Source of the DNA: a virus
Taxonomy: Duplodnaviria > Caudoviricetes
Direction: 5' to 3' (one strand)
Length of the DNA stretch: 64,000 nt
Virus record (IMG/VR): IMGVR_UViG_2731957752_000002
Span: 1 to 64,000 of that record
Shown: in pieces, positions 1,146 to 62,637 of the stretch
Position numbering within the stretch: the first letter of the stretch is position 1
Layout of the letters: every line of letters begins with the position of its first letter
The notes under the pieces: model-generated
The model's input: the letters and a program-made list of their open reading frames with translations, nothing else
Database searches by the model: none
What the model was told of the DNA's origin: nothing
Translations under genes and position numbers: made by a program

Positions 1146-2062
1146 TTCGTGAACTCGACGGCATCGAACTTGCCGACATCATCGAACCCGGGTCACCCGA
1201 ATGGTGGTCACGCATGAGCGCGTCGAAAGTCTCAGCGGTGCTTGGCCTGTCGCGGTGGGAATCCCCGTTCTCCATCTGGCACAAGATGGCCGGACACATC
1301 CCAGACCTCGAACAGACCGAGGAACAAGCACGCGGCCACTACCTCGAACCTGCCATCGCCGCATGGTTCGCCGACCAGCACCCCGACTGGACCGTCCGCA
1401 AAACCGGAACCTGGCAACACCGTGCGCGCACCTGGCAGATCGCGTCACCAGACGCTGCCATCTGGGTACCCACGCGCGCCGGGCTGGAGATCCGTGTGGG
1501 GGAGTGGAAGACCGACGCCGACTCCGACACCGAGTGGGGTGAACCCGGAACCGACGAAATCCCGGTCGGCTACCGAGCCCAGGTCATGTGGACCATGGAC
1601 ACGATCGGCGCCCGGACCGCGCACGTCGCGATGCTCGGCGCCTACCTGTCGTTCCGCGAATACGTCGTCCACTACGACCCCAAAGAAGCGGCAGACATCC
1701 GCCAGCGCGTCACCGCGTTCATGGACAGCCTCCCAACCGGCGGTCGACCGCAACCGCCAGACCTGGATCGGCACACCGCCACCTACCAGACGGTGAGAGC
1801 GCTCAACCCCGACATCGTTGACGAAGAAGTCGAACTGACCGAAGCGACCGCACTCCGCTACCTCAACGCGATCGACGCCGAAGCCGACGCCATCGCCGAA
1901 CGCATCGGCGCCACAGCGCAACTCGCGCACGAAATCGGTGACGGACGCTACGGCCGATTCCGGGGCGTCAACATCGCCCGCCGCCAACAGAAACGAGGCG
2001 GCACACCCTTCGTCACCCAAACCCGGAAACGCCCCGAACTTCACCACGGAGAAGCAGCATGA
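1139..2062 (+). CDS. YqaJ-like / lambda-exonuclease-family recombination exonuclease (RecE-like)
   Basis: SASKVSAVLGLSRWESPFSIW, RGHYLEPAI, ASPDA, EWKT, YRAQVMW motifs; upstream of RecT. Confidence 0.92.
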   Translation: MVIRELDGIELADIIEPGSPEWWSRMSASKVSAVLGLSRWESPFSIWHKMAGHIPDLEQTEEQARGHYLEPAIAAWFADQHPDWTVRKTGTWQHRARTWQIASPDAAIWVPTRAGLEIRVGEWKTDADSDTEWGEPGTDEIPVGYRAQVMWTMDTIGARTAHVAMLGAYLSFREYVVHYDPKEAADIRQRVTAFMDSLPTGGRPQPPDLDRHTATYQTVRALNPDIVDEEVELTEATALRYLNAIDAEADAIAERIGATAQLAHEIGDGRYGRFRGVNIARRQQKRGGTPFVTQTRKRPELHHGEAA

Positions 2063-2928
2063 CCACCTCAACCTCTCAGGCCGTCGCCAAACAGGACCAC
2101 TCGCCGCGCGGAATGATCGCCCAATACCAGGGCGACTTCGCGCAGGTCATGCCCTCCCACATCCGACCCGAAACCTGGGTCAGGATCGCGCAAGGCGCCC
2201 TGAAGAAGGGCAAGAAGCAGGGCGACTACTACGAACTCGAAATCGCAGCCATGAACAACCCCGGCGTTTTCATGGCCGCCCTGCTCGACGCCGCCCGCCT
2301 CGGCCTCGAACCAGGGACGGAGGAATTTTGGCTTACGCCCCGAAAGGTCAAGGGCCGCCTGGAAATCCTCGGCATCCCTGGCTACCGGGGGATCATCAAG
2401 CTCATCTACAACGCGGGCTTCGTTTCGTCCGTTGTTGCCGAATGCGTGTACTCCAACGACCGGTTCACCTACCACCCCGGACGTGACCAGTACCCGCAAC
2501 ACGAAATCGACTGGGACTCCGAAGACCGCGGCAAGCTGCGTCTCGTCTATGCGTACGCGCGGATGAAGGATGGCTCTTACTCGAAGGTTGTCGTGCTGAA
2601 CCGCCACGACATCAAGCGGATCAAGGAATCGTCGCAGGGCTCGAACTCCGAGTACTCGCCGTGGCAGAAGCATGAGGCCGCGATGTGGCTCAAGTCCGCG
2701 GTGCGGCAGCTCGCGAAGTGGGTTCCGACGTCCACCGAGATCCGCAACGACGCGAAGGTCGTCGAGTCCAAGCGGGTTCAGCAGGAGGAGTTCACGGCAC
2801 CTGCCTTGGTGGAAGCCGACCCGGTCTTGGAAGGCGAACTCGTCGACGACGGGGTGACCGACGCGCCGGCCGCCTACTACGAGGACGCCGCCGACGGTGG
2901 CATGTTCCCGCCGGACCCGGAGGCGTGA
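2059..2928 (+). CDS. recT: RecT-family ssDNA annealing recombinase
   Basis: AARLGLEPG, GYRGIIKL, YAYARMKDG, SPWQKHEAAMWLKSAVRQLAKWVP. Confidence 0.93.
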   Translation: MTTSTSQAVAKQDHSPRGMIAQYQGDFAQVMPSHIRPETWVRIAQGALKKGKKQGDYYELEIAAMNNPGVFMAALLDAARLGLEPGTEEFWLTPRKVKGRLEILGIPGYRGIIKLIYNAGFVSSVVAECVYSNDRFTYHPGRDQYPQHEIDWDSEDRGKLRLVYAYARMKDGSYSKVVVLNRHDIKRIKESSQGSNSEYSPWQKHEAAMWLKSAVRQLAKWVPTSTEIRNDAKVVESKRVQQEEFTAPALVEADPVLEGELVDDGVTDAPAAYYEDAADGGMFPPDPEA

Positions 2929-6759: not shown

Positions 6760-8064
6760 ATGACCGAGAACCTCACCTACGACTACACCGCCGAACAAGC
6801 CGTCATCGGCGCCGTCATGCTCGCCCCCGAACAGACTGCCACCCACTTCCTCGGCATCCGGCCAGAAGACTGGTACACCCCCGTCTTCCGCGACACAGCC
6901 GCCGTCATCCGCGGTCTCATGGCCGACGGCAAACCCATCGAACCCGCAACCGTCCTCGTCGAAGCCCAAAACCGTGGCCTCGTCGGCCGCAAGATCCAAC
7001 CAGTCGCGCTCTTCGAAGCCCAGCAAGCCGCCGCCGTTCCCGCCTCCGTGCCCGTCCTCGCCGAACGCATCCGCAACCTCTCCGCCGCCCGCAAACTCTC
7101 CGAAACCGGCATCCGCCTCGCCCAACGCATGGACAGCGCCTGGACCTCAGGCGCCGACCGCGCCGACATCGACGACGCCATCGCCGCCACCCGCCGCGCA
7201 TGCGACGAAGCCGAACAAATCGCCGCCGACCCCACCAGCAACCCACCAACACCCATGGGCGACTTCCTCGCCCAACCCTCACACCACAACTGGATCGTCC
7301 CCGGCCTCCTCGAACGCATGGACCGCATCGTCCTCACCGGAGCCGAAGGCGGCGGCAAAAGTGTCCTCTGCACACAAATAGCGACCACCCTCGCCGCGGG
7401 ACTTCACCCGTTCACCGGAAACCTCCTCGGCTCAGACGGATACCGGGCGCGCGTCCTCGTGATCGACTGCGAGAACAGCCCGTCCCAATCCCGGCGCCGC
7501 TACAAATGGGTCACCCGCATGGTCAACGACCGGCGCACCAACCACGGACTCCAACCAGTCGACTGGAACGAGTCGATGAGCATCGAAGTCCGCCCCGCCG
7601 GCATCGACCTCCGCGCAGGCGACGACGCTGCATGGCTCGAACGCGCCATCGCCGACACAAACCCCGACCTTCTCGTCCTCGGCCCGCTCTACAAACTCCA
7701 CCGCATGAACCCCAACGACGAGCAGCCCGCGCGAGACGTTGTCTGGGTGCTTGACGGACTCCGCGAACGGTACGGGTTCGCGCTCCTCACCGAAGCCCAC
7801 GCAGGCAAATCCACCACAGGCGACGGACGCCGCAACATGTCGCCCATCGGCGCAAGCCTGTGGCTGCGCTGGAGCGAATTCGGATTCGGGCTCGCCCGCG
7901 CAGCCGACGACCCCGGCAAAGGCCGCGCCGAAATCGTCGACGTCGTGTCCTGGCGAGGCGCCCGAGAAGAACGCGACTGGCCGTCGAAACTCCAGTTCTC
8001 CCACATCCTTCCGTGGATGCCCTCCGACCCCGACTACTACGACCAGGCAAGGCGGTCGCAGTGA
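6760..8064 (+). CDS. DnaB-like replicative helicase (SF4/RecA-type ATPase)
   Basis: AEQAVIGAVML DnaB-N motif; Walker A GAEGGGKS; VLVIDCEN. Confidence 0.88.
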   Translation: MTENLTYDYTAEQAVIGAVMLAPEQTATHFLGIRPEDWYTPVFRDTAAVIRGLMADGKPIEPATVLVEAQNRGLVGRKIQPVALFEAQQAAAVPASVPVLAERIRNLSAARKLSETGIRLAQRMDSAWTSGADRADIDDAIAATRRACDEAEQIAADPTSNPPTPMGDFLAQPSHHNWIVPGLLERMDRIVLTGAEGGGKSVLCTQIATTLAAGLHPFTGNLLGSDGYRARVLVIDCENSPSQSRRRYKWVTRMVNDRRTNHGLQPVDWNESMSIEVRPAGIDLRAGDDAAWLERAIADTNPDLLVLGPLYKLHRMNPNDEQPARDVVWVLDGLRERYGFALLTEAHAGKSTTGDGRRNMSPIGASLWLRWSEFGFGLARAADDPGKGRAEIVDVVSWRGAREERDWPSKLQFSHILPWMPSDPDYYDQARRSQ

Positions 8065-8270
8065 CCGTCACGCCACCACCATGCAACGGCGCAGTAATCG
8101 TCGGCGTCGTCGAAGCCTTCGCCCGACACTGGCCCCACCTCAAACCGCCCATGTTCCGCGCCGACGACGTCCTCCCACTCCTCGCCGGCAACGACCGCGA
8201 ATACAACGCCGCATCAGCACTACTCGAAGCCGAACGCGTCCACTACCAGCCAGGGCAAGAACCAGATTGA
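8061..8270 (+). CDS. Hypothetical protein
   Basis: GTGA overlap with helicase stop. Confidence 0.5.
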   Translation: MTVTPPPCNGAVIVGVVEAFARHWPHLKPPMFRADDVLPLLAGNDREYNAASALLEAERVHYQPGQEPD

Positions 8271-8550
8271 CAACACATCGATACTCAACTCAACCCAACC
8301 AGACTCGTCGGCAAACGGACAGCAGCAAGACCAAAACAACTGCGTATGGCGTACGCAATTCGTGGCGGACGCAGTTTTCTCCGACCGGCCTCTATATGCC
8401 GCTACAGCCCACCGAAACCCTCTCCCGGCCACTCGGATACCAGACGGCCCTGAAAGTCGCTCCTACCGCCTCCTGCGGACTCAAGAATGAGGTTCCTGAT
8501 TTGCCTGCCCGACTGACTCCCGCCGAAACCGCCGTTGAGGCGGTGGCGGC

Positions 8551-10026
8551 ATGACGCTCACGGTGACCGACCTGTTCGCCGGATCCGGTGGTTCGTCGAC
8601 CGGACTGGCTGACGTGCCCGGCCTCGAACTGGTCCTCGCGATGAACCATTGGCAGCTGGCGATCGACACACACGCGTCGAATCACCCGCGCGCCGACCAC
8701 AAGTGCGCCGACATCTCGCAGTATGACCCGCGGTTGGCGCCGCGCACGGACATCTTGTGGGCGTCGCCGTCCTGCACTCACCACAGTCAGGCGTCGGGCA
8801 AGAAACGCAACCATGGTGCCGCGGCCGGTGACCGGCAGCCGGACCTGTTCGGGGAGATCCTGCCCGACGAGGCTGCCGAGCGGTCGCGGGCGACGATGTG
8901 GGATGTGTTGCGGTTCACCGAGCTTCACCGGTACCGGGCGGTGATCGTGGAGAACGTTGTCGACGTCATGCAGTGGGTGATGTTCCCGGCGTGGCGGCAA
9001 GCCTGGGGTCTGCTCGGGTACGAGATCCGGTTTGTGTTCATGAACTCGATGCATGCCCAGGCTGGGGGAGTGCCGGCGCCGCAGTCTCGGGATCGCTGGT
9101 ATGCGGTGGCGTGGCCGAAGGGGAATCGGGCGCCGGATTTGGAGAAGTGGACGCGCCCGCGCGCCTGGTGTGTGACCTGCGATGAGTGGGTGTACGCGGT
9201 GAAGTCGTGGAAGCGTCCCGATCGGGAGCCGTGGGGCCGTTACCGGGCCCAGTATGTGTGGCGTTGCCCGCGTGTGAAGTGCCGTAATTCGGTGATCGAA
9301 CCTGGTTGGTTGCCTGCTGCGTCGGCGATTGACTGGACGTTGCCTGGTGAGCGGATCGGTGACCGTGTGAAGCCGTTGGCGGAGAAGACGATGGCCCGTA
9401 TTTGTGCCGGGCTGAGCAAGTTCTATGGGTCAGCGGACGGCTTGTTGGTGCCTGCGGGTGGGTCGTGGAACGAGACCGCGTATCCGTTGACGGAGGCGAT
9501 GCGGACCCGTACGACTCGCGAGTCTGAAGGACTGTTGATTCCGGTGGAGGGTCGTGACGGGAAGGTCGCTGGGCATGTGCGGGAGCCGTTGCGGACCCAA
9601 ACCGCCCGCAACGAAACCGGGCTTCTGGTGCCGTATTACGGCAACGGCAACGCGGCTACCACGAGCGAACCGGATCGCACGATGACGACTCACGACCGGT
9701 ATGCGTTCGTGGTTCCGTTGCGGAACAACAACACCCCGAAGTCCGTGCGGGATCCGTTGGACACGTTCGCTGCCGCGGGCAACCATCACGCGCTCGCGAC
9801 GACCGCCGTTCCTAATATCGAGGACTGCATGTTCCGCATGCTCACCCCGGACGAGATCAAGCGCGGTATGGCCTTCCCTGACGACTACACGCTTCTCGGC
9901 AACAAGCGCGAGAAGGTGCGGTTGTGCGGCAACGCGGTCACTCCTCCTGCTGCACGCGATCTCGGCGCCGCGGTCGCGGAATCCCTCGGGCATGTGGTCG
10001 GCGAACCAGCGGCGGTGGCGGCGTGA
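8551..10026 (+). CDS. DNA (cytosine-5)-methyltransferase
   Basis: DLFAGSGG (I), SPSC (IV), ENV (VI), QSRDR (VIII), RMLTPDEIKRGMAFP and GNAVTP (IX/X). Confidence 0.95.
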   Translation: MTLTVTDLFAGSGGSSTGLADVPGLELVLAMNHWQLAIDTHASNHPRADHKCADISQYDPRLAPRTDILWASPSCTHHSQASGKKRNHGAAAGDRQPDLFGEILPDEAAERSRATMWDVLRFTELHRYRAVIVENVVDVMQWVMFPAWRQAWGLLGYEIRFVFMNSMHAQAGGVPAPQSRDRWYAVAWPKGNRAPDLEKWTRPRAWCVTCDEWVYAVKSWKRPDREPWGRYRAQYVWRCPRVKCRNSVIEPGWLPAASAIDWTLPGERIGDRVKPLAEKTMARICAGLSKFYGSADGLLVPAGGSWNETAYPLTEAMRTRTTRESEGLLIPVEGRDGKVAGHVREPLRTQTARNETGLLVPYYGNGNAATTSEPDRTMTTHDRYAFVVPLRNNNTPKSVRDPLDTFAAAGNHHALATTAVPNIEDCMFRMLTPDEIKRGMAFPDDYTLLGNKREKVRLCGNAVTPPAARDLGAAVAESLGHVVGEPAAVAA

Positions 10027-10184
10027 CTCCTGTGCAGGTCGCTTTGTTGTGGCTGGCGGTGCCCGCGGCGCTTTTCGTGTTGGCGTGCGTGGTTCGGCAT
10101 CTGGACGTGAAGTTCGCGTTGCTGATGGCTGCTGTGGGCGCGCTGGTGGCGTGCTTGATCGACCTGATCGAGGTGGCGGCGTGA
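10023..10184 (+). CDS. Small two-TM membrane protein
   Basis: GTG 10023 overlapping MTase stop; two hydrophobic segments. Confidence 0.55.
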   Translation: MTPVQVALLWLAVPAALFVLACVVRHLDVKFALLMAAVGALVACLIDLIEVAA

Positions 10185-10245
10185 GAAGTGTGTCGGTATC
10201 TGACTATGCGCATCTGTTGATTGAATCTATTGAAGGGAGAGCGAC

Positions 10246-10752
10246 ATGACCGACCTGATAATTGGCGTGGACGCAATCGCGAAGGCATCCGTGAACACCA
10301 TGCGTGAGCTGATCAAGCAGCCGTTGAACGTCGATGCCTGCACCCAGTTCGGGCCCCACAAGCCTGGCGACACCGTCGAGGTCCGCAAGGCCGGCACTGA
10401 GGACGAGACGATCTCGGTGCAGTTGAATACCGTTGCCGACGTAGCGTTCGCGGTGACGTCAGAAGATCTGACGCTGCCGTTCAACGACTTCCGTGACAAG
10501 TTCATCGTGCCCGCAATGGATGTGCTCGCGAAGAACATCGACCGGTCCATGCGCGCCGCAGGTCAAGGCGCGCAGTTCGCATCAGCCCCGCTTCCGCTCC
10601 CGGTCGTGGATGAGCGTTTCTGTGCTGTAGTGACTCTGGACGGCATTTCTCTGCGTGTCGTCGAGGTCTTCGACATTGCCAGGTGCGAGACCGTGATGGC
10701 CTTCGACGTCCTGTACGGCGTCGCAGTCGCAGAACAGGCGGAGGCCGCATGA
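10246..10752 (+). CDS. Internally deleted paralog of the major capsid protein (168 aa)
   Basis: Collinear with 61720..62637: KPGDTVEVRK/KVGETVNIRK, LNTVADVAFAVTSEDLTL/LNTIKDVSFAVTSEDLTL, PAMDVLAKNIDR/PAMEALAQSIDR, ASAPLPLP/ASAPLALP, GISLRVV/GLSLRLV, FDVLYG/LDILFG; GAAGGGAG SD. Confidence 0.9.
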   Translation: MTDLIIGVDAIAKASVNTMRELIKQPLNVDACTQFGPHKPGDTVEVRKAGTEDETISVQLNTVADVAFAVTSEDLTLPFNDFRDKFIVPAMDVLAKNIDRSMRAAGQGAQFASAPLPLPVVDERFCAVVTLDGISLRVVEVFDIARCETVMAFDVLYGVAVAEQAEAA

Positions 10753-10988
10753 TCTCGCTGTGGTGGAGTTTCGCGCTCACAACGATCGGCGTCACGGGCC
10801 TGGTGCTCGTGTACCGGTCTCAGTCGCTCGTCGGCCCGCTCATCGGTCTCGCCGTGCAGTTCCTGTGGATCGCCTACGCGGTCGCGACCCGGCAGTGGTG
10901 GTTCCTGTTGTCCGCGTTCACGTACGGCGCCGCGAACATCTACGGCCTGACCAAGCGCCGCAACGAACGAACCGAGGTAATCGAGTGA
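10749..10988 (+). CDS. Small three-TM membrane protein
   Basis: ATGA overlap; three hydrophobic helices. Confidence 0.65.
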   Translation: MISLWWSFALTTIGVTGLVLVYRSQSLVGPLIGLAVQFLWIAYAVATRQWWFLLSAFTYGAANIYGLTKRRNERTEVIE

Positions 10989-12119
10989 CCCCCGAGGATA
11001 TCCGCGCTTGCTACGAGATAGCGCTCGCCGAGCAGTTGGAGATCATCGCGCCGTCCTGGATCGGTGCGGGCCGCGAGGGGGAGGTAGCCGCCGACGTAGT
11101 CGACGCTCTCGCCGCCGCCGGGCTGCTGCCGACTGGTGCGGAACGGCTTGTCGCCTACGCGGTCATGGACACCAGCGACGACCACGTGATGCGGCGGTAC
11201 GTCACCGAATGGCAGCCGGAGGAGGCCGAGTGAACGGGATCCCGATCAGCTTCGCTGCACCCCGCACGTGCCCGCACAACTGGGAAGTCGTCTCGATGGT
11301 GTTCGAAACGCAAATGCTCGACGCCCGCGGGCGAGTCATCGTGCGGCAACCCGACGTTCAGGAAGCTCGCGTGTACTTCATCTGCCGCGGCTGCGCCTCA
11401 CACACCTACATGACCACCCAATGGATTGGCTGCCGCATGTACGGCAGCGAAGACGCCAAAGCCGCGTTGGCGAAACGGATGCGGTTCTGGGCGGACCGCA
11501 TCGACCCAGCCGGGGCACCCCGCTACATGGGGTACTCGTACACAATCGAACCCGGCAAGGGGGTCGTGTTCCACAAGAACGGCCGCGGCTGCAAGCTCTG
11601 GTACCTCGGGAACGTCGACCACGAGCGCGCCTACAGCGAATCGCGGGCGTCGACAGCGGATCTCGCCGACCTGACCGACCAAGAGTTGCTTGCTTCCGCG
11701 ATGCTCACACCCGATCCCGACCGTGCACGTGCATGCAAACAGGAGTGGGATCGCCGACTGCGGGCCAAGTGGCGGGGGGCTGAAGCGTGACCATAGAAGG
11801 GTGCAGTCGCTGCTGGTGTGGGCGCCCAAGCCACCCCGATCTGATCGACGGATGCGTAGGCGACCCGCTTCTACGCGCGCTGTTCGGGCCTCCCAGCGTT
11901 GAGGCGATGATCTCCACGGCCATCACCATGTACGGAGACCTGCTGGCGTTGGCCGTGGACGGCAACGAGGAGGCTGCGGCCCTTATTGCGGCGAACCCGA
12001 TCCCGGAACCGTCGATCGAGACCGATATGTCGATTCTGAAGCTCGCGGGCATGGACGTTTCTGCGGAAGATGTTCGGTCGCTTCGAGCGTGGTACGGCGG
12101 TGAAGAGCGGGCGGCGTGA
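10985..12119 (+). CDS. Three coupled hypothetical genes (10985-11233, 11230-11790, 11787-12119)
   Basis: Successive GTGA overlaps; Cys pairs in second and third. Confidence 0.55.
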
Positions 12120-12229
12120 CGGACTGCCGGCCTGCGCCACCCGACCATGCTCGCCGAAGACGAGTCCGGCAGCCGGGCACGCGGGGAGGTGCATGACCAC
12201 CGCCCGCGTGCGGCACCGACAGGGCAGGG

Positions 12230-12754
12230 CTACTCGTCGTAGCCGTTCGCGGCTGCCTGAGCATTCGCGCAGTCGATCAGGAAAGCGAGCGACACCGACG
12301 ACTGAAGCGGCGACGGCACCCAACCCGTTGCTGTCACAATGAAATCGCTCTTGGATTTCGTTTCCCCAGGCGCCCATGTGCCAACTGCAACCGGGATGCG
12401 CGCCCAGTTGACCGGCTCTCCGGTTTCGGTATTGACCGGACGCCGGTAGTACGACGTGAAATCCTCGTATTCACCGTATTCGGCCTTATGGGCATTCCTG
12501 TACTGCTCGCAGAACGGTGCGCGCTCGCCGAGGAGCACCCAGAAGATCGGGATGGTGTCGCCGTGCCGGGTTTCCACCTTCTTCGCCCAGATTTGGAACA
12601 TCTCGTACGCGCTGATCTCGCGCGTGGTGTAGTCGTCGGACACGGAAGCGTAGTCCGCTTCCCATTCGAGCACCAGGGGAACTTTCGTCTGGACTTCCCC
12701 CGAGATCTTCGGGGTGACTGTCCACTGGTTCTCTTGCTCGGTGTAGGTGGCCAT
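12230..12754 (-). CDS. Hypothetical protein, counter-oriented moron
   Basis: AAAGGAA SD; opposite strand to surrounding operon. Confidence 0.75.
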   Translation of the reverse strand: MATYTEQENQWTVTPKISGEVQTKVPLVLEWEADYASVSDDYTTREISAYEMFQIWAKKVETRHGDTIPIFWVLLGERAPFCEQYRNAHKAEYGEYEDFTSYYRRPVNTETGEPVNWARIPVAVGTWAPGETKSKSDFIVTATGWVPSPLQSSVSLAFLIDCANAQAAANGYDE

Positions 12755-12882
12755 CGGTTCCTTTCTTGCCCGCGGCTTGTGCCGCTCGTCAAGTCTAGCG
12801 GGCCATTAAGGGTCGCTTCATCTTTCGCGGGTCACCGGTTGCGCTCGAATTTCGAGTTTGACTCGGGCGAGACAATAGAAGC

Positions 12883-13486
12883 GTGAGCGAAGAAGAAGGC
12901 GGTTACGAGCTTTTCATGCCGTTCGTCACGGTGAAAAGCAACGGCGGACCCCACGACGACACCGCCTATGTTGCCGGTTGGGAAATGGGTGCACTCGACG
13001 CACAACTCAGGACAGCAGCATCGGTGCGCGCGGAAAACCTCACCGTCCAGGTCCACACCGCGAACATCCCGCAAGTCGACCTGCTGGCAATGAAACACGG
13101 ATTCACGGTCGAACACTTTGCTTACGAAGACTGCCCTAACTGGTCGGAAGTCGCATTCACCAGGAGCGCGAAGGACGCCGATGACTGACGACGAAATCGA
13201 TGACCGGGTCGACGCCTGGCACAACGGCGCCGGCGGGGGCATGCCGCTACATGAATACCTCGGCATGACCTGGAGTGAGTACGCGGAATGGGTTGAAGCG
13301 CCAGGGCGAGCAGGTGAGCCGGACACAGCGCAGGCAGTCCAGGAAGAGTTGGCGCGCGCGATGGCTCAGCCGATCGACGTCGACGCGATCCTCGGTTCTC
13401 TCGGACCCGAATACAACGACCCAGGTGACGATCCATGGGGCGGCGCCAACCTGTTCGACCTGACGGAGGTGAACGGCGGTGAGTGA
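12883..13486 (+). CDS. Two hypothetical genes (12883-13188, 13181-13486)
   Basis: Overlapping ORFs with SD-like motifs. Confidence 0.6.
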
Positions 13487-14669
13487 CCGTGACATTGTCG
13501 ACGCGATCGACGAACTCGTAGACGCGCAACTCGCCAACTACGACCGGCGCAGCGGCTACGACTACAACGTCAACCAAGACAAATGCCCGCACGAATGGTG
13601 CCGTGAGCCGTGGCATGGGCTCGCCATCACCCGACGCATGCGGGAAATGCGGTCGATCGGGTACGTCGACCCCGAATACCGGTACGCCGACGACGACTCA
13701 CAGGTCTTGTGCCCCGGCTCGACGTTCGAAGGCGAATTCGAGCCGCCAGCACAGGCGCCCAACGGCTTGGCGGCCTTCCGGCAGCAGCTAGAGGAAATCA
13801 ACGAGAGGTTCGCGGGGCTGGTTGGCATTCCGCCGCAGGCTTGGCGCAGCGGCGGCAGGATCTCCGGCAGTCGGGGCGGTGGGGGGCCTGCATCGTCCCC
13901 GATCATCGACATGGAGACCGTCAACCGACTCCGGAGCATGCGTGTCACCGCCACCTCTCCGATAGGTGTTCGCTACTACGACGGACTGTTCGACTACTTC
14001 GAAGTCGAAGTCGCGCGACACTTTCCCGGCGTGCAGGTCGACCGTGCCGACATGCGGCACGAGGAGCGGCCCCCACTGTCGTCGACCGCCCCGGCGATTA
14101 TCGACATGATGTGGCGGCCCCAGTCGAACGAGATCGAGTTCATCGGCGGGCCACGGCACGGCGAAACCATGCCCGTGCCCGGACTCGATGTGGAGCTGTG
14201 CCCCGAGATCCGCGTACCACTGCCGGTCACGGTGATGCGAATTCGGGATTTCGATCCCGCCGCGCCGATCCAAGACAACATCATCCGCTACAAGCGTTTC
14301 GGCTGGAACCCGGAAACCAGACGCTGGGTGTACAGCACCGACAGTGATTGGCGCCCGGAATGCCGGTACTGCCGACGCCAGCCCGTGCGCAACCTGGCCG
14401 ACAAGTACTGCCAGGGTTGCATACGGGACCTGATCATCGCCGAATCCATCTGGGAAGGCGAGCGGTACGCGCGCACGCACGGCATCCGCCAGCCTGTTGT
14501 CGCTATCGAAGAAAGCTACCTCCGCGGCATGGACCTGGAGAGGTTCCGGGTGCATGTCGTCAGCTGGCCGTGCGACAGCACCCAGTTGCTTCTCCGCCGG
14601 ATGGCCGCACTTGCCGGCCGCACACTCGAATCGTTCTACGTCAACACCTCTGGAGAACAAGCAGCATGA
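13479..14669 (+). CDS. Hypothetical multidomain protein (396 aa) with Cys/His clusters
   Basis: CPHEWCREPWHG and CRYC...YCQGC motifs. Confidence 0.7.
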   Translation: MSDRDIVDAIDELVDAQLANYDRRSGYDYNVNQDKCPHEWCREPWHGLAITRRMREMRSIGYVDPEYRYADDDSQVLCPGSTFEGEFEPPAQAPNGLAAFRQQLEEINERFAGLVGIPPQAWRSGGRISGSRGGGGPASSPIIDMETVNRLRSMRVTATSPIGVRYYDGLFDYFEVEVARHFPGVQVDRADMRHEERPPLSSTAPAIIDMMWRPQSNEIEFIGGPRHGETMPVPGLDVELCPEIRVPLPVTVMRIRDFDPAAPIQDNIIRYKRFGWNPETRRWVYSTDSDWRPECRYCRRQPVRNLADKYCQGCIRDLIIAESIWEGERYARTHGIRQPVVAIEESYLRGMDLERFRVHVVSWPCDSTQLLLRRMAALAGRTLESFYVNTSGEQAA

Positions 14670-54881: not shown

Positions 54882-55409
54882 ATGGCACGAAAACGCACCA
54901 TCCCCGTCGAAGTCCTCGTGCAAGCGCAGGAACGTCGCAACAAGATCCTGGAACTGCGTCTCGCAGGCAAGTCCCAAGCCCAGATCGTGGCCGAAACAGG
55001 CTGGTCCAAACAGACCGTCAGCGCCGACCTGAAACGAGCTATCGAGGACATCACCCGCGAAAACGCCGAAGAATACCGGGAACTGGAACTCACCCGCCTC
55101 GACGAAATGTGGGCAGCCATCTGGCCGCGGATCGTCAACCCGAAAAACGCCGAGGAACGCAAAGCCCAACCATGGTTAATGGACCGCGCATTCGAGATCA
55201 TCGAGAAGCGCGCCAAACTCACAGGCACTTACAAGGCAGCCGAACTGCGCGCCATCGCTGACGCCAAGGGTGGTGTCGGCACCGAGACTTTGTCCATGGT
55301 CGGCAGCTTCTTCAGCCGACTGGAAGAACTCGTCGCAGCCGATCAGCTCGCCGACGACAACGAGGAGACAGAGCCCGCAGATAGCGACGAAACGGACCTT
55401 CCAGAGTGA
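54882..55409 (+). CDS. Terminase small subunit
   Basis: HTH LRLAGKSQAQIVAETGWSKQTVSADL; overlaps terminase large subunit. Confidence 0.8.
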   Translation: MARKRTIPVEVLVQAQERRNKILELRLAGKSQAQIVAETGWSKQTVSADLKRAIEDITRENAEEYRELELTRLDEMWAAIWPRIVNPKNAEERKAQPWLMDRAFEIIEKRAKLTGTYKAAELRAIADAKGGVGTETLSMVGSFFSRLEELVAADQLADDNEETEPADSDETDLPE

Positions 55410-56716
55410 ACGTCCTCGACGACCTGCCACTGTCTCGCAAGCAGATCGTCAGCATCGTCGAAGCCCGCCGCTACCGCACCACCATCTGGTCAGGAGCCGT
55501 CCGCGCCGGCAAAACCATCGCCTCGATTCTCGCGTTCTACGACGCCGTGCACAAGGCGCCCGACACCGGGCTCATCATCATCGTCGGCCGAACGTTGCAG
55601 ACCATTGAACGCAACATCATCGAACCGATGCAGGACGAGAACGTCTTCGGTCCGTGGGCGGCAGAGGTGCATCACACCCGCGGCTCGAACATCGCGGTAA
55701 TCCTCGGTCGCACCGTGCACTTGATCGGCGCGTCCGATGTGCGCGCGGAGGGGAAGTTGCGCGGCATGACGTGTTGCCTCGCGCTCGTCGACGAAGCAAC
55801 GTTGTTGCCAGAGAACTTCTGGACCCAGTTGCAAGCGCGACTCTCGGTTCCTGGCGCCCGTTGTCTCGCGACAACGAATCCGGACAATCCTGCCCACTAT
55901 TTGAAGACGAAGTTCATCGACAAGGCGTCCGACCCAGAGATGCGGTTGCGTGCGTGGAACTTCACGATGGACGACAACCCGTCTCTCGACCCGGAATTCG
56001 TGGCTACCACGAAGGCGTCGTTCACGGGATTGTTCTATCTCCGCAACATTCTCGGACATTGGGTTGCCGCCGAAGGCGGCGTGTATGACTGCTTTGATCC
56101 CGATCGGCATGTGGTGAAATGGGCCGACCTGCCCGAGATGCAATGGTATGTGGGTGTCGGCGTCGATCACGGTACGACTAACCCGACCGCCGCGACCATG
56201 GTTGGCCTCGGCGTGGACAATGTCCTCTATGCGGTCGACGAATGGCGGTATGAACCCAGCAGCAAGGAAGCCCGCCGGACCAACGTACAACTGTCCCAAG
56301 GGCTACGAACATGGCTTGCCGGTCCGCACCACCCGAGCGAAGACCCAGACAGTCCGCCCCGGATCACATGCCCCGTGGTCGTCGACCCCGCCGCTGCGGA
56401 CTTCCGTGTCCAGTTGAAACAGGACGGGCTCAGCACCGGCCCCGCCCAAAACGATGTCCTCTATGGGATCAGGACGGTGTCCGCTCTTTTCAGCGTGGAC
56501 AAACTGAAGATAGCTGATCGATGCGTCGGGCTTATCAAAGAGATTCCCGGCTATGTGTGGGATACCAAGGCCACCGAAGAAGGAAAAGACCAGCCGATCA
56601 AGCTGGATGATCATTCTGTGGACAGTGTTAGGTACGCCCTGGTTTCGACTGAGCGGAAATGGCGGCGCCGCGTAAAGCTGGCGCATGATTCGAAAGCAGA
56701 ACCGGTTGCTGCGTGA
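55406..56716 (+). CDS. Terminase large subunit (PBSX-like)
   Basis: GAVRAGKT, LVDEA, ATTNPD, GVDHGTTNP, VDPAA, DDHSVDSVRY. Confidence 0.95.
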   Translation: MNVLDDLPLSRKQIVSIVEARRYRTTIWSGAVRAGKTIASILAFYDAVHKAPDTGLIIIVGRTLQTIERNIIEPMQDENVFGPWAAEVHHTRGSNIAVILGRTVHLIGASDVRAEGKLRGMTCCLALVDEATLLPENFWTQLQARLSVPGARCLATTNPDNPAHYLKTKFIDKASDPEMRLRAWNFTMDDNPSLDPEFVATTKASFTGLFYLRNILGHWVAAEGGVYDCFDPDRHVVKWADLPEMQWYVGVGVDHGTTNPTAATMVGLGVDNVLYAVDEWRYEPSSKEARRTNVQLSQGLRTWLAGPHHPSEDPDSPPRITCPVVVDPAAADFRVQLKQDGLSTGPAQNDVLYGIRTVSALFSVDKLKIADRCVGLIKEIPGYVWDTKATEEGKDQPIKLDDHSVDSVRYALVSTERKWRRRVKLAHDSKAEPVAA

Positions 56717-56785: not shown

Positions 56786-57040
56786 ATGTCCCTCGCGGAT
56801 GATCTATTCGAGGACGCTCAAGAGAAAAGCAAGCCGATACCGTGTAAGACCGGTGTTTGGATCGCTGGGCTCCCCGACCGCGACCGAGAAGCATTCGACG
56901 AGTTTCTCAACAACGGCGGCCCGGTTTCGAACCTGTGGCGGCTGGCGGTCAAGAATGGCTGCGCATCCGCCGAGACCCGCTTCCGCGCGCACTGCCGGAA
57001 ACGATGCTCCTGCTACAACGCTTTGGAGATCGCTGCGTGA
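56786..57040 (+). CDS. Small Cys/His-containing protein
   Basis: AGGAGG SD; PCKTG...RAHCRKRCSC. Confidence 0.7.
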   Translation: MSLADDLFEDAQEKSKPIPCKTGVWIAGLPDRDREAFDEFLNNGGPVSNLWRLAVKNGCASAETRFRAHCRKRCSCYNALEIAA

Positions 57041-58179
57041 GCCTCGCCGACGACCTCTCTCGGCAGCCGACTGCCGCGGAATCGGAGTACCGGCCGCGTA
57101 CTGAATTCGACGGCCGCGCCGGGGGATACATCCAGACCGGGCCGCTGCCAACCGCACCCGCCTCCTACACAGAGCTGCTGGAACAGTTCGGCTACAACCC
57201 TGATGAAGTCGAGATCGTCGGTCACCCGCGGGTGAGCCGCTGGCAGGGCTTCAGCGGGGAATGGTTAGCGGCATACCGGTTCCGTATCGCGCCGAAGGCC
57301 GCACCGTCGAACGTTGACGACTTGCTGGCACGCATCAATGCGTGGACTGCACATCAACCGGTCGCCGCGCCTGGGCCGCACGTGTTCAACCTTCAGTGCT
57401 CGGATTTGCAGATCGCCAAGGTCGACAACGGTGGCACCGAAACGATCGTCGAGAAGTTCTTGGAGACCGTCGACCGCGCCGTAGCTGAATACAACTCGCT
57501 GAAGCCCCGCGGCATCGCCGGCGTCCACATCTTGTTTCCCGGCGATTGCATCGAGGGCAACCAATCGCAGGACGGCCGCAACTGGTGGCGCACCGAATAC
57601 GGTGTCACCACCCAAACCCGGATCCTGCGCCGCCTGATGCTGCACACCGTCGAACAGTTCGCGCCACTCACTGACCAGGTTTGGATGTCGGTCGTCAACG
57701 GCAACCACGATCAGGCCCAAAGGTTCCAGAACACGAACCCTGGTGACGGGTGGGCCACAGAGTGCGCGATCAGCGTCGCCGACGCCCTGAAGATGAACCC
57801 GGCCGCGTTCGGGCACGTCACCGTCGAGGTGCCGGACCCTGAGCAGGGGTTCATGACCGTCGCTCGCGGCGACACCATCTTCACCATCGCGCACGGTCAC
57901 CAGTGGAAGGGCGGCGCCAGCGCGAAGCATTCGCATGCTTTCACCTGGTGGTCCGATCAAGCCTTCCACCAGCAGAACCCTGCGGGCGCTCATGTCTTAG
58001 CGCACGGCCACTTTCACAGTTGGGCCGTCGAAACGTCGAAGACCCGCACCCGCATCTGCTCGCCCACCTTCGACGGCGGCAGCAACTACTACCGAGACCT
58101 GACCGGCGCTGAAGCCAAGCGCGGCGGCCTCATCTACCTCACCCGAGCAGGCGAAGTCTCCAACATGAGCCTCGTCTAA
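57037..58179 (+). CDS. Calcineurin-like phosphoesterase
   Basis: SDLQ, PGDCIEG, NGNHD, AHGH, HGHFH. Confidence 0.88.
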   Translation: MSLADDLSRQPTAAESEYRPRTEFDGRAGGYIQTGPLPTAPASYTELLEQFGYNPDEVEIVGHPRVSRWQGFSGEWLAAYRFRIAPKAAPSNVDDLLARINAWTAHQPVAAPGPHVFNLQCSDLQIAKVDNGGTETIVEKFLETVDRAVAEYNSLKPRGIAGVHILFPGDCIEGNQSQDGRNWWRTEYGVTTQTRILRRLMLHTVEQFAPLTDQVWMSVVNGNHDQAQRFQNTNPGDGWATECAISVADALKMNPAAFGHVTVEVPDPEQGFMTVARGDTIFTIAHGHQWKGGASAKHSHAFTWWSDQAFHQQNPAGAHVLAHGHFHSWAVETSKTRTRICSPTFDGGSNYYRDLTGAEAKRGGLIYLTRAGEVSNMSLV

Positions 58180-58240: not shown

Positions 58241-59848
58241 GTGGCGATGCCTGAGTTCAAAGGCGCGTGGCCGCCGGAGCCCCACGATCAGGCGGCAGAC
58301 GCCTACGACACCTTCACCGCCTGGTGGTCAGGTGATGTGGAAACGCTTCAGGAGATCTACAGCGATAGCAGCCGGATGCCAGCGCCGCGGCCGTCGCAGT
58401 TGGCGGGTGGGTGGCGAGGCCGGCTGGCCCGCTTTTGGTACGGCCGACCAGTCCTTCAGGACACCAAGCGCCTTCACATCCCGGCCGCCGCGGATATCGC
58501 AACCACTTCAGCGGACCTGCTGTTCGGTCAGCCCCCTACCTGGCTGTTCAACCAGGGCGATGCGAAAGACCTCCAAGCCGCGCAGGACCGGTTGTCGGAT
58601 CTGCTCGACGGCGCCGACACGGTAGCGACCCTGTTGGAAGCTGCTGAGGTGCAAGCGGCCTTGGGTGGTGTCTACATTCGGCTCCATTGGGACAAAGAGG
58701 CCACTGAGAAGGTGATGTTCTCCGCGGTCGCCCCTGACGCTGCTATCCCGGAGTGGCGGTACGGGAAGCTGATCGCAGTGACTTTCTGGTCTGTTGTCGC
58801 GAAGGACAAGCGGGGCACGTGGCGGCACTTGGAGCACCACAGTATCGGCAGGATCGAACATGCCCTCTATCTGGGTGATGACGGCTCGATTGGCCGTGAA
58901 GTGCCGCTCGACTTGTTGGATGCCACGAAGTGGGCCGCCGATCAGCCTGTCGTAGAGACCGGCGTGGACGGCTTGACTGCCTGCTACATCCCGAACGTTC
59001 GTCCGGCTCGCCGCTGGCGAAACACTCCCGGCCTGTCCGCACTGGGCCGCTCAGACTTCGAGGGTGTGGAGCCGCTGTTCGACGCACTGGACGAGGTGTG
59101 GTCGTCGTGGATGCGGGATATCGATCTCGCGAAAGCCCGCCTGTTCGTCGCGCAGGAGCTGTTGGAGGATCAAGGACCGGGCAAGGGCTCCACGTTCGAC
59201 CCGGAGCAGGCGATCTTCACGCCGGTGCCGTCCGATGGGATGGCGCTGAATGACGACAGCGGCGCGCGGCTCGTGCAAGCCCAGCAGTTCGCGATTCGGG
59301 TGGAGGAGCACTCGAAGACGTGCGACAAGCTGTTGAAGCAAATCCTTCGCGCGGCAGGCTATTCGGCGGGCGACTTCGACGATTCGGAGACTGCCGGTGC
59401 GATCACCGCTACCGAGGTGTCCGCGCGCAAGGACAAGTCGAACACCACCCGATCCCGGAAAATACTTTACTGGCAGAGCGAGTTTCCAAAACTTGCGTCG
59501 GTCGCACTCCGCCTCGATGGACTGATCTTCCAGCGCCCCGATCTCGGAATCACCGCCGACCCGGAAATGGTGTTCCCGGTGCGCGTGGACCAGGATCCGG
59601 TGCAGTTGGCTACCGCGCTTTCCGCGTTGAAGACTGCCCGGTTGATCTCGACGGAGACCGCGGTCCGGGAACGCAACCCGAACTGGTCGAAGGACGAGGT
59701 TGACGACGAGGTCGCCCGGATCCTGAAGGAAAACACGCTGGAAGTCGCTGACCCTGATGGCGGCGAGTTCGAACCAGCCCACGAGGAACCCGACACCGGT
59801 TTCACCGATGAGGTCGAGCCCGACAGTGAGGTGGAGGAGGCGGCGTAA
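58241..59848 (+). CDS. Portal protein
   Basis: Position and size; LHIPAAADIA, GRSDF...LFDALDEVWS, TATEV. Confidence 0.92.
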   Translation: MAMPEFKGAWPPEPHDQAADAYDTFTAWWSGDVETLQEIYSDSSRMPAPRPSQLAGGWRGRLARFWYGRPVLQDTKRLHIPAAADIATTSADLLFGQPPTWLFNQGDAKDLQAAQDRLSDLLDGADTVATLLEAAEVQAALGGVYIRLHWDKEATEKVMFSAVAPDAAIPEWRYGKLIAVTFWSVVAKDKRGTWRHLEHHSIGRIEHALYLGDDGSIGREVPLDLLDATKWAADQPVVETGVDGLTACYIPNVRPARRWRNTPGLSALGRSDFEGVEPLFDALDEVWSSWMRDIDLAKARLFVAQELLEDQGPGKGSTFDPEQAIFTPVPSDGMALNDDSGARLVQAQQFAIRVEEHSKTCDKLLKQILRAAGYSAGDFDDSETAGAITATEVSARKDKSNTTRSRKILYWQSEFPKLASVALRLDGLIFQRPDLGITADPEMVFPVRVDQDPVQLATALSALKTARLISTETAVRERNPNWSKDEVDDEVARILKENTLEVADPDGGEFEPAHEEPDTGFTDEVEPDSEVEEAA

Positions 59849-60880: not shown

Positions 60881-60956
60881 CTGAGGGTTTCGTCATTTCA
60901 ACACCCTGTATGGCCAGGTTGCCTGCGGGTGTTTCTGCGTGTCCAGGAGGCACATC

Positions 60957-61691
60957 ATGGCCGACGAAGCCACCCCCCAGGAAACCACAACTGAAAACGC
61001 TGTCGACACTCCTGTCGAAACCCCGGCCGACAATCCGGTGCCCGGTGACGCTGTACAGGTCCCCGAGTCCGAAAACCCGGTCGAAACTCCTGCCCCCGAG
61101 CAGGAAAAGCCCGCGGCAAAAACCTACGACGAAGCCTACGTCAAGAAGCTTCGCGAGGAGAACGCCGCGACCCGCGTGAAGGGTAAAGAGGCTGCGGAAA
61201 AGGCTGCACAGGATGCCGCCGCTGCTGCCGAGAAGGCCCTCACTGAGAAGTGGGCGAAGGCTCTCGGACTGACCAAGGACGACGAACCCGCCGATCCCGC
61301 TGAGCTGCTGAAGCAGGCTGAGGAGCGGGAAAAGCAGATCGCCGCAGAGCGCGACGCTGCTGCTGAACGGCTCCGCGCCTACGAGCGCAAGGACGCCATC
61401 ACCAAAGCCGTCAATGACGTTGACGGCGACCTCGAATCCATTCTCGATTCCCGCAAGATCAGCGTGGAAATCGAGAAACTCGACACGAATGCCGACGATT
61501 TCGCTGCCCAGGTGGCCGCGATCGTTTCTGCGGCAGTCGAATCCAACCCAAAGCTCAAGAAGGCTGCCGACCGGGCGTCGGCTCCTCGAAGCGGCGGTGA
61601 TCTCTCGAACGGCAACGCGGCACCGAAACCGCGCGGCCCGAAAACCGTTGACGACTTCCGGCGCGAAATCGCCGAACGCAATAAGCGTTAA
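60957..61691 (+). CDS. Capsid scaffolding protein
   Basis: Acidic N-terminus, YVKKLREENAATR, coiled coil; precedes capsid. Confidence 0.88.
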   Translation: MADEATPQETTTENAVDTPVETPADNPVPGDAVQVPESENPVETPAPEQEKPAAKTYDEAYVKKLREENAATRVKGKEAAEKAAQDAAAAAEKALTEKWAKALGLTKDDEPADPAELLKQAEEREKQIAAERDAAAERLRAYERKDAITKAVNDVDGDLESILDSRKISVEIEKLDTNADDFAAQVAAIVSAAVESNPKLKKAADRASAPRSGGDLSNGNAAPKPRGPKTVDDFRREIAERNKR

Positions 61692-61719: not shown

Positions 61720-62637
61720 ATGGCTAATACCCTGCTTACCCCCGATGTTCTGGCGCGGGCCGCTCTGGCGAACCTGTACGAGCAGTTGTGCATGGTGCCG
61801 CTGGTGTACACGGATGTTTCGTCCGATTTCACTCGGACCAAGGTCGGCGAGACCGTGAACATCCGGAAGCCCGCGACCTTCACCGCGAACACCTTCGATC
61901 GGTCCAGCGGCATCACCATTCAGAACGCGACTGAGACCAGCGTCCCGGTCGTGCTGAACACCATCAAGGACGTGTCGTTCGCGGTCACCTCGGAAGACCT
62001 GACCCTCCACCTGGAGGACTTCACCGAGCAGCTGCTGAAGCCCGCCATGGAAGCACTGGCCCAGTCGATCGACCGCGCCATCATCGCGCAGGCGAAGGCC
62101 GACTTCACCCAGGTCGCGGGCACCCAGACCGGTTTCGAGTGGAACAAGCCCGAAGTCCTCATCGAAGCGCGGCGCCAGCTCGACATCAAGAACGTCCCGA
62201 ACTCGGAGTGCGCGGCTGTTGTCGGCCCCACGACCAAGGCGAACTGGCTGAACTCCGACTGGCTGAAGCACGCCGACAAGAGCGGTTCGACCGAGGCACT
62301 GCGCAAGGGCTCGATCGGCACCGACCTCCTGAGCTTCGACGCCTTCATGACCCAGAACATTGTCCAGCCTGCGGGTTCGCCGGCGACCGGTCAGCCGACC
62401 ACCGAGGTGGGTTTGGCGTTCCACCGGACTGCACTGGCGCTTGCTTCGGCTCCGCTGGCTCTGCCGAGCGACCAGGGCTGGGCCGCGGTCGAGTCGTACA
62501 AGGGTCTGTCGCTGCGGCTGGTGAAGCGCTACGACATCGTCAAGAAGCAGGACGTCTGCTCTCTGGACATCCTGTTCGGCACCAAGACCCTCGACGCGAA
62601 CCGCGGCGTTCTGCTGCGCGGCGCTCTGGCTGCCTAA
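61720..62637 (+). CDS. Major capsid protein (HK97 fold, P22-coat-like family)
   Basis: MANTLLTPDV, GETVNIRKP, LAFHRTALALAS, LDILFG; follows scaffold; hairpin downstream. Confidence 0.93.
   Translation: MANTLLTPDVLARAALANLYEQLCMVPLVYTDVSSDFTRTKVGETVNIRKPATFTANTFDRSSGITIQNATETSVPVVLNTIKDVSFAVTSEDLTLHLEDFTEQLLKPAMEALAQSIDRAIIAQAKADFTQVAGTQTGFEWNKPEVLIEARRQLDIKNVPNSECAAVVGPTTKANWLNSDWLKHADKSGSTEALRKGSIGTDLLSFDAFMTQNIVQPAGSPATGQPTTEVGLAFHRTALALASAPLALPSDQGWAAVESYKGLSLRLVKRYDIVKKQDVCSLDILFGTKTLDANRGVLLRGALAA

Follow-up and report, generated by a model that had tools for sequence, protein, structure and literature searches.

In HK97-fold shell proteins, pentamers and hexamers are centred on the A-domains and each E-loop extends across the adjacent subunit; the N-arm and P-domain are turned towards the shell interior and the contacts between capsomers, and both bind peptides of scaffold or cargo. 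In the P22 coat protein, the scaffold binds at the N-arm. Here we describe a gene for a 168-aa protein, which we call mini-MCP, in a stretch of 64,000 nucleotides of viral DNA (positions 1 to 64,000 of the IMG/VR record IMGVR_UViG_2731957752_000002; hereafter the window) that also encodes a full-length major capsid protein (MCP) of 305 aa. The closest described relatives are the P22-type coat proteins (PF11651/PHROG 283; those of CUS-3, Sf6 and P22), with which mini-MCP has in common its sequence homology, an N-arm helix, a spine helix and a P-domain sheet. Unlike them, it has no A-domain and an E-loop cut to a short hairpin, is optional, is encoded outside the head module in three of the five elements whose context could be read, and has lost a third of the positions conserved in MCPs. 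Encapsulins also resemble it: they have the HK97 fold, and their N-terminal helix packs against the P-domain (structural matches at VIA-align Z 8.0-8.9; the tool itself warns that values of 8-9 are middling), but they keep their A-domains and form closed shells around cargo, and no cargo or shell context was seen for mini-MCP.

Two further systems bear comparison. The T4 vertex protein gp24 (PDB 1YUE; fold match at Z 7.9), a paralogue of gp23, is likewise a phage-encoded paralogue of a shell protein, but it has the full fold and is an essential structural pentamer, whereas mini-MCP is optional and lacks the capsomer-forming domain. Ccm of SaPIbov5 (PMC8569155; PDB 7RWZ; chain 7rwz_B at Z 5.8) is likewise a second HK97-fold homologue with a non-standard role beside a normal MCP; it is reported to be a complete shell-forming HK97 protein that co-assembles into procapsids and is satellite-encoded, whereas mini-MCP has lost domains and belongs to the prophage or phage-like replicon itself, which also encodes terminase, portal and MCP. 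We read mini-MCP as a capsid-protein paralogue with a non-shell role. A literature search, with supplementary files outside its scope, returned no description of A-domain-less capsid homologues or of capsid-protein decoys.

Homology and predicted structure of mini-MCP

By its sequence, mini-MCP is a true homologue of the 305-aa P22-type MCP, as the original prediction had proposed. BLASTP aligned its residues 1-107 with MCP residues 1-126 (35% identity, E 8e-19) and, collinear with this segment, its residues 122-158 with MCP residues 251-287 (38% identity, E 1e-7). Both proteins match the Pfam family P22_CoatProtein (PF11651; mini-MCP at 2.3e-8, with 33.7 bits against a cut-off of 24, and MCP at 5.6e-40) and PHROG 283, 'major head protein' (8.7e-12 and 1.4e-64), and PF11651 is also matched by 7 of the 17 aligned members of the short family described below. 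The block FAVTSEDLTL, which the prediction had reported as identical in the two proteins and synonymously different in their DNA, is so: six of its ten codons differ at the third position, and the block is therefore no recent conversion tract. The two in-frame gaps noticed at the outset are also real, since in a MAFFT alignment with 95 MCPs the short form of the window skips MCP residues 51-69 (17 aa) and about 123-238. Moreover, the gene has the Shine-Dalgarno sequence of its own that had been described (Table 1).

The AlphaFold2 model of mini-MCP, computed from an alignment of 17 sequences, is confident (pLDDT 91.9, pTM 0.86). It comprises an N-arm helix (residues 8-22), an E-loop hairpin (43-47/55-59), a strand (62-70) and a long spine helix (79-105), followed by the P-domain strands 110-114, 126-131, 134-143 and 148-160. 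The MCP model (pLDDT 89.6) has the same elements together with a long E-loop (45-78, with strands 45-50/73-78), a spine helix at 101-128 and, at about 131-235, an inserted A-domain of helices and strands that is missing from mini-MCP. The two models and the alignment agree with the earlier mapping of the deletions: as modelled, the gaps remove the tip of the E-loop and cut the A-domain out neatly after the spine helix and before the P-domain strand that follows, leaving the N-arm, the spine helix and the P-domain sheet. The models thus portray mini-MCP as a compact module of these three parts that should fold alone. This outcome favours the prediction, which would have been refuted by deletions that leave a protein unable to fold. 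At the same time, we infer that it is not a shell subunit in the usual sense and would be unable to assemble.

Comparison of the model with 48,161 chains by VIA-align gave 50 listed entries, all of them HK97-fold capsid or encapsulin shell proteins. The best match was the CUS-3 coat protein (Z 9.1, root-mean-square deviation 4.8, 132 aligned residues), followed by the encapsulin of B. linens (Z 8.9) and the coat proteins of Sf6 (Z 8.0) and P22 (Z 7.9), again around the range that the tool calls middling. Some matches take in the N-terminal helix, namely the encapsulin 7bcv (Z 8.9, model residues 4-166) and the 80alpha procapsid with the C-terminus of its scaffold, 6b0x (Z 6.6, model residues 2-164). 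Foldseek against the PDB returned weak rows only (best E 1.3e-3). The ESM Atlas's own model superposes on a 308-aa P22-type MCP cluster with a TM score of 0.83 by query over 159 residues. The assignment to the HK97 fold is secure because the VIA-align list is uniform and sequence homology supports it.

An old short-form family and its divergence

Mini-MCP has relatives of its own kind. A word-indexed search found three other short proteins (166-178 aa, 42-63% identity to mini-MCP), and a profile search of 1.84 billion representatives gave 715 matches at E<=1e-3; among the best 150 of these, 16 proteins (146-188 aa) each align with the short-form profile over its full length in a single stretch, whereas full-length MCPs need two or more stretches. 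These 16 proteins and that of the window make up the 17-sequence short-form alignment. The named members come from Nocardia and Rhodococcus and are annotated as 'hypothetical protein' or 'P22 phage major capsid protein family protein'. In a joint alignment of 20 short forms with 95 non-redundant MCPs (numbered by the MCP of the window), all 20 skip the same two segments. The smaller gap runs from residues 50-52 to 69-74, so that 16-23 residues of the E-loop are missing and its hairpin stays; the larger runs from about 123-138 to 238-239, takes away the A-domain, and has a C-terminal edge that is nearly invariant among the short forms. Nineteen of the 20 retain the N-arm helix; the 146-aa member begins at MCP residue 29. 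In the subgroup of the window the most conserved stretch is a subgroup-specific motif at the end of the N-arm, RE-x-I-K/T-Q-P-L-N.

A maximum-likelihood tree on 170 shared columns, made with a quick method and containing many long mini-MCP branches, has a single branch that splits 19 short forms from the 95 MCPs (SH-aLRT 82; one change, against a mean of 17.9 in shuffles). A further, starred branch (98) places 37 of the MCPs on the side of the short forms and leaves 58 on the other. The common gap boundaries independently point to a single origin of the short forms, so that one loss of the A-domain and of the E-loop tip in a common ancestor is supported by these alignments, although not proven. 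The original prediction had taken mini-MCP for a paralogue of the MCP of its own phage. It is no recent copy of that protein: the short forms sit on a branch of their own, and mini-MCP is 39% identical to the MCP of its own element and 33-40% identical to foreign ones, each mini-MCP being as similar to foreign MCPs as to its own.

The claim of a selected, intact derivative fared better. The 20 short forms, 26-64% identical to one another, are intact and free of frameshifts, and homologues with the same deletion boundaries, which had been named as a check, were found in every case. Synonymous rates do not help here, because the NG86 ratios of nonsynonymous to synonymous substitution for 15 mini-MCP pairs (0.33-1.01) come with synonymous differences (pS) of 0.46-0.63, which are saturated and make the ratios uninformative, and an MCP control pair is likewise saturated (pN 0.37, pS 0.52). 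Purifying selection on mini-MCPs is instead indicated by the 20 intact reading frames, by the conservation of length and boundaries at such low identities and by the confident fold. The short forms are an old, conserved but optional family, unnamed and uncharacterised, and not a private relic of one genome.

Within this frame mini-MCPs diverge fast. Between two related Nocardia prophages the identity is 89% for MCP, 86% for TerL, 84% for a head-tail protein, 83% for the portal, 63% for a tail-tube-like protein and 60% for both the MuF protein and a VIT-like protein; for mini-MCP it is 45%, the lowest of the eight syntenic genes. Detectable DNA similarity (blastn) between these prophages ends just after the terminase gene and returns at the last bases of the mini-MCP gene. 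Across the five elements with readable context, pairwise identities are 48-89% for the MCPs and 26-46% for the mini-MCPs. Furthermore, 49 alignment columns show at least 90% conservation among MCPs and are represented in 15 or more of 19 short forms. At 15 of these columns the conserved residue persists in 70% or more of the short forms (including A12, G43, L79, D84, P108, A109, G262, R266, L285 and G287 in MCP numbering), and at 17 it does so in fewer than 30% (among them Y20, E72, Y260 and K276). Shell-type constraints are thus relaxed in the short forms: the core of the protein is preserved, and many residues invariant in shell proteins can vary freely.

Genomic settings

The window corresponds to positions 26005-90004 of contig C17 in a 7.69-Mb genome of 124 contigs. 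From about 22 kb to 120 kb this contig has a GC content of about 63%, compared with about 70% in the flanks. The drop suggests that the window lies inside an integrated prophage of about 97 kb; the phage is a temperate one of a soil actinobacterium. The original prediction had put the capsid gene 51 kb downstream of mini-MCP; the distance holds, with the correction that both genes lie inside this prophage. The terminase, portal, MuF-like protein, scaffold (60939-61691) and MCP genes are 45-51 kb 3' of mini-MCP. Table 1 lists the features of the window.

Table 1. Features of the window relevant to mini-MCP, in window coordinates.
Feature	Position	Strand	Remarks
Mini-MCP gene, 168 aa	10246..10752	+	ATG start; HK97-fold/P22-type capsid protein derivative
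Shine-Dalgarno sequence GAAGGGAG	10232..10239	+	6 nt before the mini-MCP ATG at 10246; read directly
Full-length MCP, 305 aa, P22_CoatProtein family	61720..62637	+	Comparator for mini-MCP
53-aa open reading frame (ORF), unlisted	10023..10184	+	Two strongly hydrophobic segments (two transmembrane segments); directly 5' of mini-MCP
79-aa PnuC-like membrane protein, phrog_2421	10749..10988	+	ATG at 10749 overlaps the mini-MCP stop at 10750-10752 (ATGA)
C-5 cytosine DNA methylase	8551..10026	+	5' of mini-MCP, in the same co-directional, tightly packed gene string
RecT	2059-2928		Same co-directional string as mini-MCP
DnaB-like helicase	6760-8064		Same co-directional string as mini-MCP; a helix-turn-helix protein also in the string
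Three more ORFs 3' of the 79-aa ORF	starts 10985, 11230, 11787		Each start overlaps the preceding stop by 4 nt
Terminase	55406-56716		3' of mini-MCP
Portal	58241-59848		3' of mini-MCP

The mini-MCP gene has codon-position GC contents typical of coding sequence in this replicon (GC3 0.78, GC2 0.40). Upstream, the GTG start of the 53-aa ORF overlaps the methylase stop (GTGA). A promoter scan called no sigma-70-like site close to mini-MCP: the stretch 8000-13500 held a single promoter-like site, on the opposite strand, where shuffled sequences give an expectation of 0.8. Ala-Ala is the C-terminus of the methylase, the 53-aa ORF and mini-MCP alike (10020-10026, 10176-10184 and 10741-10752). We considered these endings as a degradation tag and rejected the idea, since those of the methylase and mini-MCP sit where the start codon of the next gene overlaps the stop, and the GGAGG for the next gene lies just before the end of mini-MCP; they look like a by-product of translational coupling.

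The prediction had stressed the coupling of mini-MCP to a small membrane protein. The ATGA overlap is present and argues for co-expression, but not for a module, because homologues of the 79-aa gene occur in 323 actinophage records (tblastn) of the same collection in which no short form was found, annotated variously as nicotinamide riboside transporter, membrane protein or 'nicotinate ribosyltransferase'. A complete PnuC transporter is far longer than 79 aa. We therefore rejected this common, independent gene as a dedicated partner of mini-MCP.

Two Nocardia prophages (L004, in genome G905, and one in genome G970) carry mini-MCP between terminase and portal, in the order terminase, small ORFs, a VIT-like membrane transporter, a helical protein of 130-147 aa, mini-MCP, portal, MuF, scaffold and MCP; here mini-MCP lies directly 5' of the portal gene and 4.3 kb 5' of MCP. 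The helical protein is 33% identical between the two prophages and begins with a common motif, WLRAEHE; as a partner of mini-MCP it was rejected, there being no tblastn match at E<=1 in the window genome and one match, at E 0.55, in the loci of the two circular records described next. The terminase-portal gap of these prophages (L004:7245-10495 and locus L139 in G970) is a variable cargo region, which holds a DUF1003-like protein (in L004) and the VIT/CCC1-like transporter, 60% identical between the prophages. In the window the same gap is occupied by a 440-aa ORF (56857-58179, + strand) that has no Pfam or NCBIfam match.

The circular record NZ_CP027560.1 of R. rhodochrous (85,315 bp; locus L132) has two tandem, diverged mini-MCPs, 32-33% identical, which follow an SPFH-domain lipoprotein and a 68-aa ORF with two transmembrane segments and precede a 3'-5' exoribonuclease, near SSB. 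Its MCP lies 52 kb away, so that here and in the window mini-MCP is 51-52 kb from MCP and outside the head module. The SPFH-domain protein (L132:5956-6783), two genes 5' of the tandem pair, has a lipoprotein-type signal, and the 68-aa ORF (L132:6798-7004), directly 5' of the pair, resembles the 53-aa ORF of the window. The circular record NZ_CP027794.1 of P. equi (Rhodococcus/Prescottella; 92,135 bp, locus L131) has one mini-MCP between small soluble ORFs and nrdF, with MCP on the other strand about 60 kb away. Both records are typed as non-mobilizable 'plasmids' and encode a P22-type MCP together with SSB, RusA, RtcB, NrdF and a cyclic-phosphate receiver domain; they have the look of phage genomes or phage-plasmids whose gene content is akin to that of the prophage of the window.

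A full-length MCP of the same family is thus present in all five mini-bearing elements with readable context. The early-region setting that had been claimed for mini-MCP stands for three of the five, where it lies in a non-late gene string, and fails for the two Nocardia prophages, where it sits between terminase and portal and adjoins the late genes. Membrane proteins are encoded within two genes 5' of mini-MCP in four of the five contexts, and no partner gene is common to all five.

The gene is optional, rare and position-shifting. Within the genus, 3 of 267 genomes carry a short form and 33 have any match (MCP included); short forms were seen in 2 of 401 genomes of the family sample, in 1 of 401 of the class sample (the window's own) and in 1 of 27 genomes of the R. 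rhodochrous-type genus; a profile scan of genome contigs found one short form among 23 loci. None was found in five large IMG/VR relatives (64-99 kb, at least 90% complete), and the 57 loci of an IMG/VR profile scan were all consistent with full-length MCPs on re-scanning with the HMM. In the INPHARED phage collection, tblastn with the mini-MCP of the window hit 12 records, all full-length MCPs and no short form, and tblastn with a second short form (P0039) gave no match; neither did megablast of window positions 9800-11300 against the phage collection, nor tblastn of short form P0028 against a plasmid collection.

Candidate roles of mini-MCP

Without an A-domain and E-loop tip, mini-MCP should be unable to make capsomers, and it would still present the surfaces that N-arm and P-domain have on a free capsid subunit. 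For this reason we propose that it mimics, in soluble form, MCP that is freshly made and not yet assembled, and would compete for a factor that binds MCP. Our main reading, to which we give a rough probability of 0.35, is that of an assembly-incompetent capsid mimic that titrates such a factor; a host capsid sensor is the most likely one. Bacterial immunity that recognises capsid protein includes CapRel and Lit (PMC9712102). CapRel(SJ46) is reported there to be activated by direct binding of MCP through a modelled interface, supported by hydrogen-deuterium exchange, that has the P-domain at its centre; among Actinobacteria CapRel is prevalent, according to the same source. Moreover, mini-MCPs are optional, change position, are sometimes duplicated, diverge fast and are non-late in three of five elements, which is the usual signature of conflict genes. 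These traits, together with the P-domain interface of CapRel, make an immune decoy for P-domain-reading sensors the leading candidate: mini-MCP, made ahead of or alongside the real MCP, might act as a sponge that blunts capsid-triggered abortive infection. In its specific form, a phage-encoded decoy that absorbs such sensors (candidate: CapRel-type toxSAS) and neither activates them nor enters the shell, the proposal is a tentative one. The host genome has two matches to PF04607 (RelA/SpoT), in open frames of 820 and 294 aa, which are not decisive; the small RelA/SpoT-domain protein is encoded on contig C13.

Several observations weigh against this reading. Avs7, Avs8 and Avs10 also sense HK97-fold MCPs, but Avs-type sensors are reported to engage the A-domain extensively (bioRxiv 10.64898/2026.01.04.697583). 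Since mini-MCP has no A-domain, it would at best address sensors that read the P-domain. In the two Nocardia prophages the gene adjoins portal and late genes and not an early operon. Mini-MCPs do not track their cognate MCP, either within elements (the 39% against 33-40% given above) or between them (MCPs at 89%, mini-MCPs at 44-45%), which sits poorly with mimicry of a specific epitope. Other conflict roles, or relaxed constraint, would lead one to expect fast divergence just as much. PADLOC, which covers defence but not anti-defence proteins, and NCBIfam gave no match for mini-MCP or its neighbours.

If the bound factor belongs to the phage and not to the host, mini-MCP could modulate assembly, as a sponge that binds scaffold, portal or the growing edges of shells and either tunes the element's own head assembly or poisons a co-resident phage or satellite. 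We regard this as possible, if on the unlikely side. The near-universal N-arm helix, the motif at the N-arm end that is the best conserved part of the subgroup, the fold matches that include the N-terminal helix (encapsulin 7bcv and the scaffold-bearing 80alpha procapsid 6b0x), the co-occurrence with a same-family MCP in five of five elements and the position directly 5' of the portal in both Nocardia prophages would all suit it, and Ccm of SaPIbov5, a capsid-protein homologue that redirects capsid shape in the account cited above (PMC8569155), offers a precedent. However, mini-MCP is missing from about nine in ten genomes with a family match and from all five large viral relatives, and it is therefore not needed for assembly; 17 of the 49 MCP-conserved columns are lost, and the position is non-late in three of five elements. 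An inhibitor of the same family would also endanger the carrier's own MCP unless self were spared, and no matching of self against non-self is seen. A P-domain module recruited to a job unconnected with capsids, on nucleic acid, in a membrane complex or with another phage protein, is less probable again and in our view unlikely. The neighbours do differ between elements (methylase and membrane ORFs; SPFH lipoprotein, an ORF with two transmembrane segments and exoribonuclease; nrdF; VIT-like transporter and helical protein), and the sequence has drifted strongly from the residues invariant in MCPs; but mini-MCP is seen only in elements that also have a same-family MCP, its predicted structure still superposes closely on the MCP core (TM score 0.83), and no conserved partner gene runs through the five contexts.

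The conflict-gene traits might also fit a defence of the prophage itself, in which mini-MCP, expressed by the lysogen, would co-assemble with the MCP of a superinfecting relative or do the sensing for an abortive system whose effector is a membrane protein encoded nearby. Its carriage by temperate elements, its fast-evolving, optional and sometimes duplicated character, the membrane proteins within two genes 5' in four of five contexts and the Nocardia location, in the variable terminase-portal cargo region where DNA similarity breaks off, are compatible with this. We nevertheless hold it to be improbable, given that the gene of the window is placed well inside a co-directional string of lytic type, with translational coupling and with no sigma-70-like promoter called nearby, that PADLOC has no match and that the downstream 79-aa membrane gene is a common, independent phage gene. 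Least of all do we expect a decaying, functionless remnant of a duplicated capsid gene, which has the truncated appearance of mini-MCP in its favour and nothing else. Twenty intact short forms at 26-64% identity, with the same boundaries and no frameshifts, speak against decay, as do the confident predicted fold, the coding-type codon composition, the Shine-Dalgarno sequence and the start/stop coupling; we consider it very improbable.

Capsid protein ranks among the chief molecular patterns that let bacterial immune systems detect a phage, and our literature search turned up no phage counter-measure built on a capsid look-alike. As a small, confidently folding and naturally domain-deleted HK97 module, fast-evolving and optional, mini-MCP is a ready-made reagent. 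It can serve as a probe of what binds free capsid protein in an infected actinobacterial cell, of whether the P-domain alone suffices for binding by a sensor, and of how far the HK97 fold can be pared while still folding. If, on the other hand, scaffold or portal is the true target, mini-MCP would be a natural, phage-encoded inhibitor of assembly.

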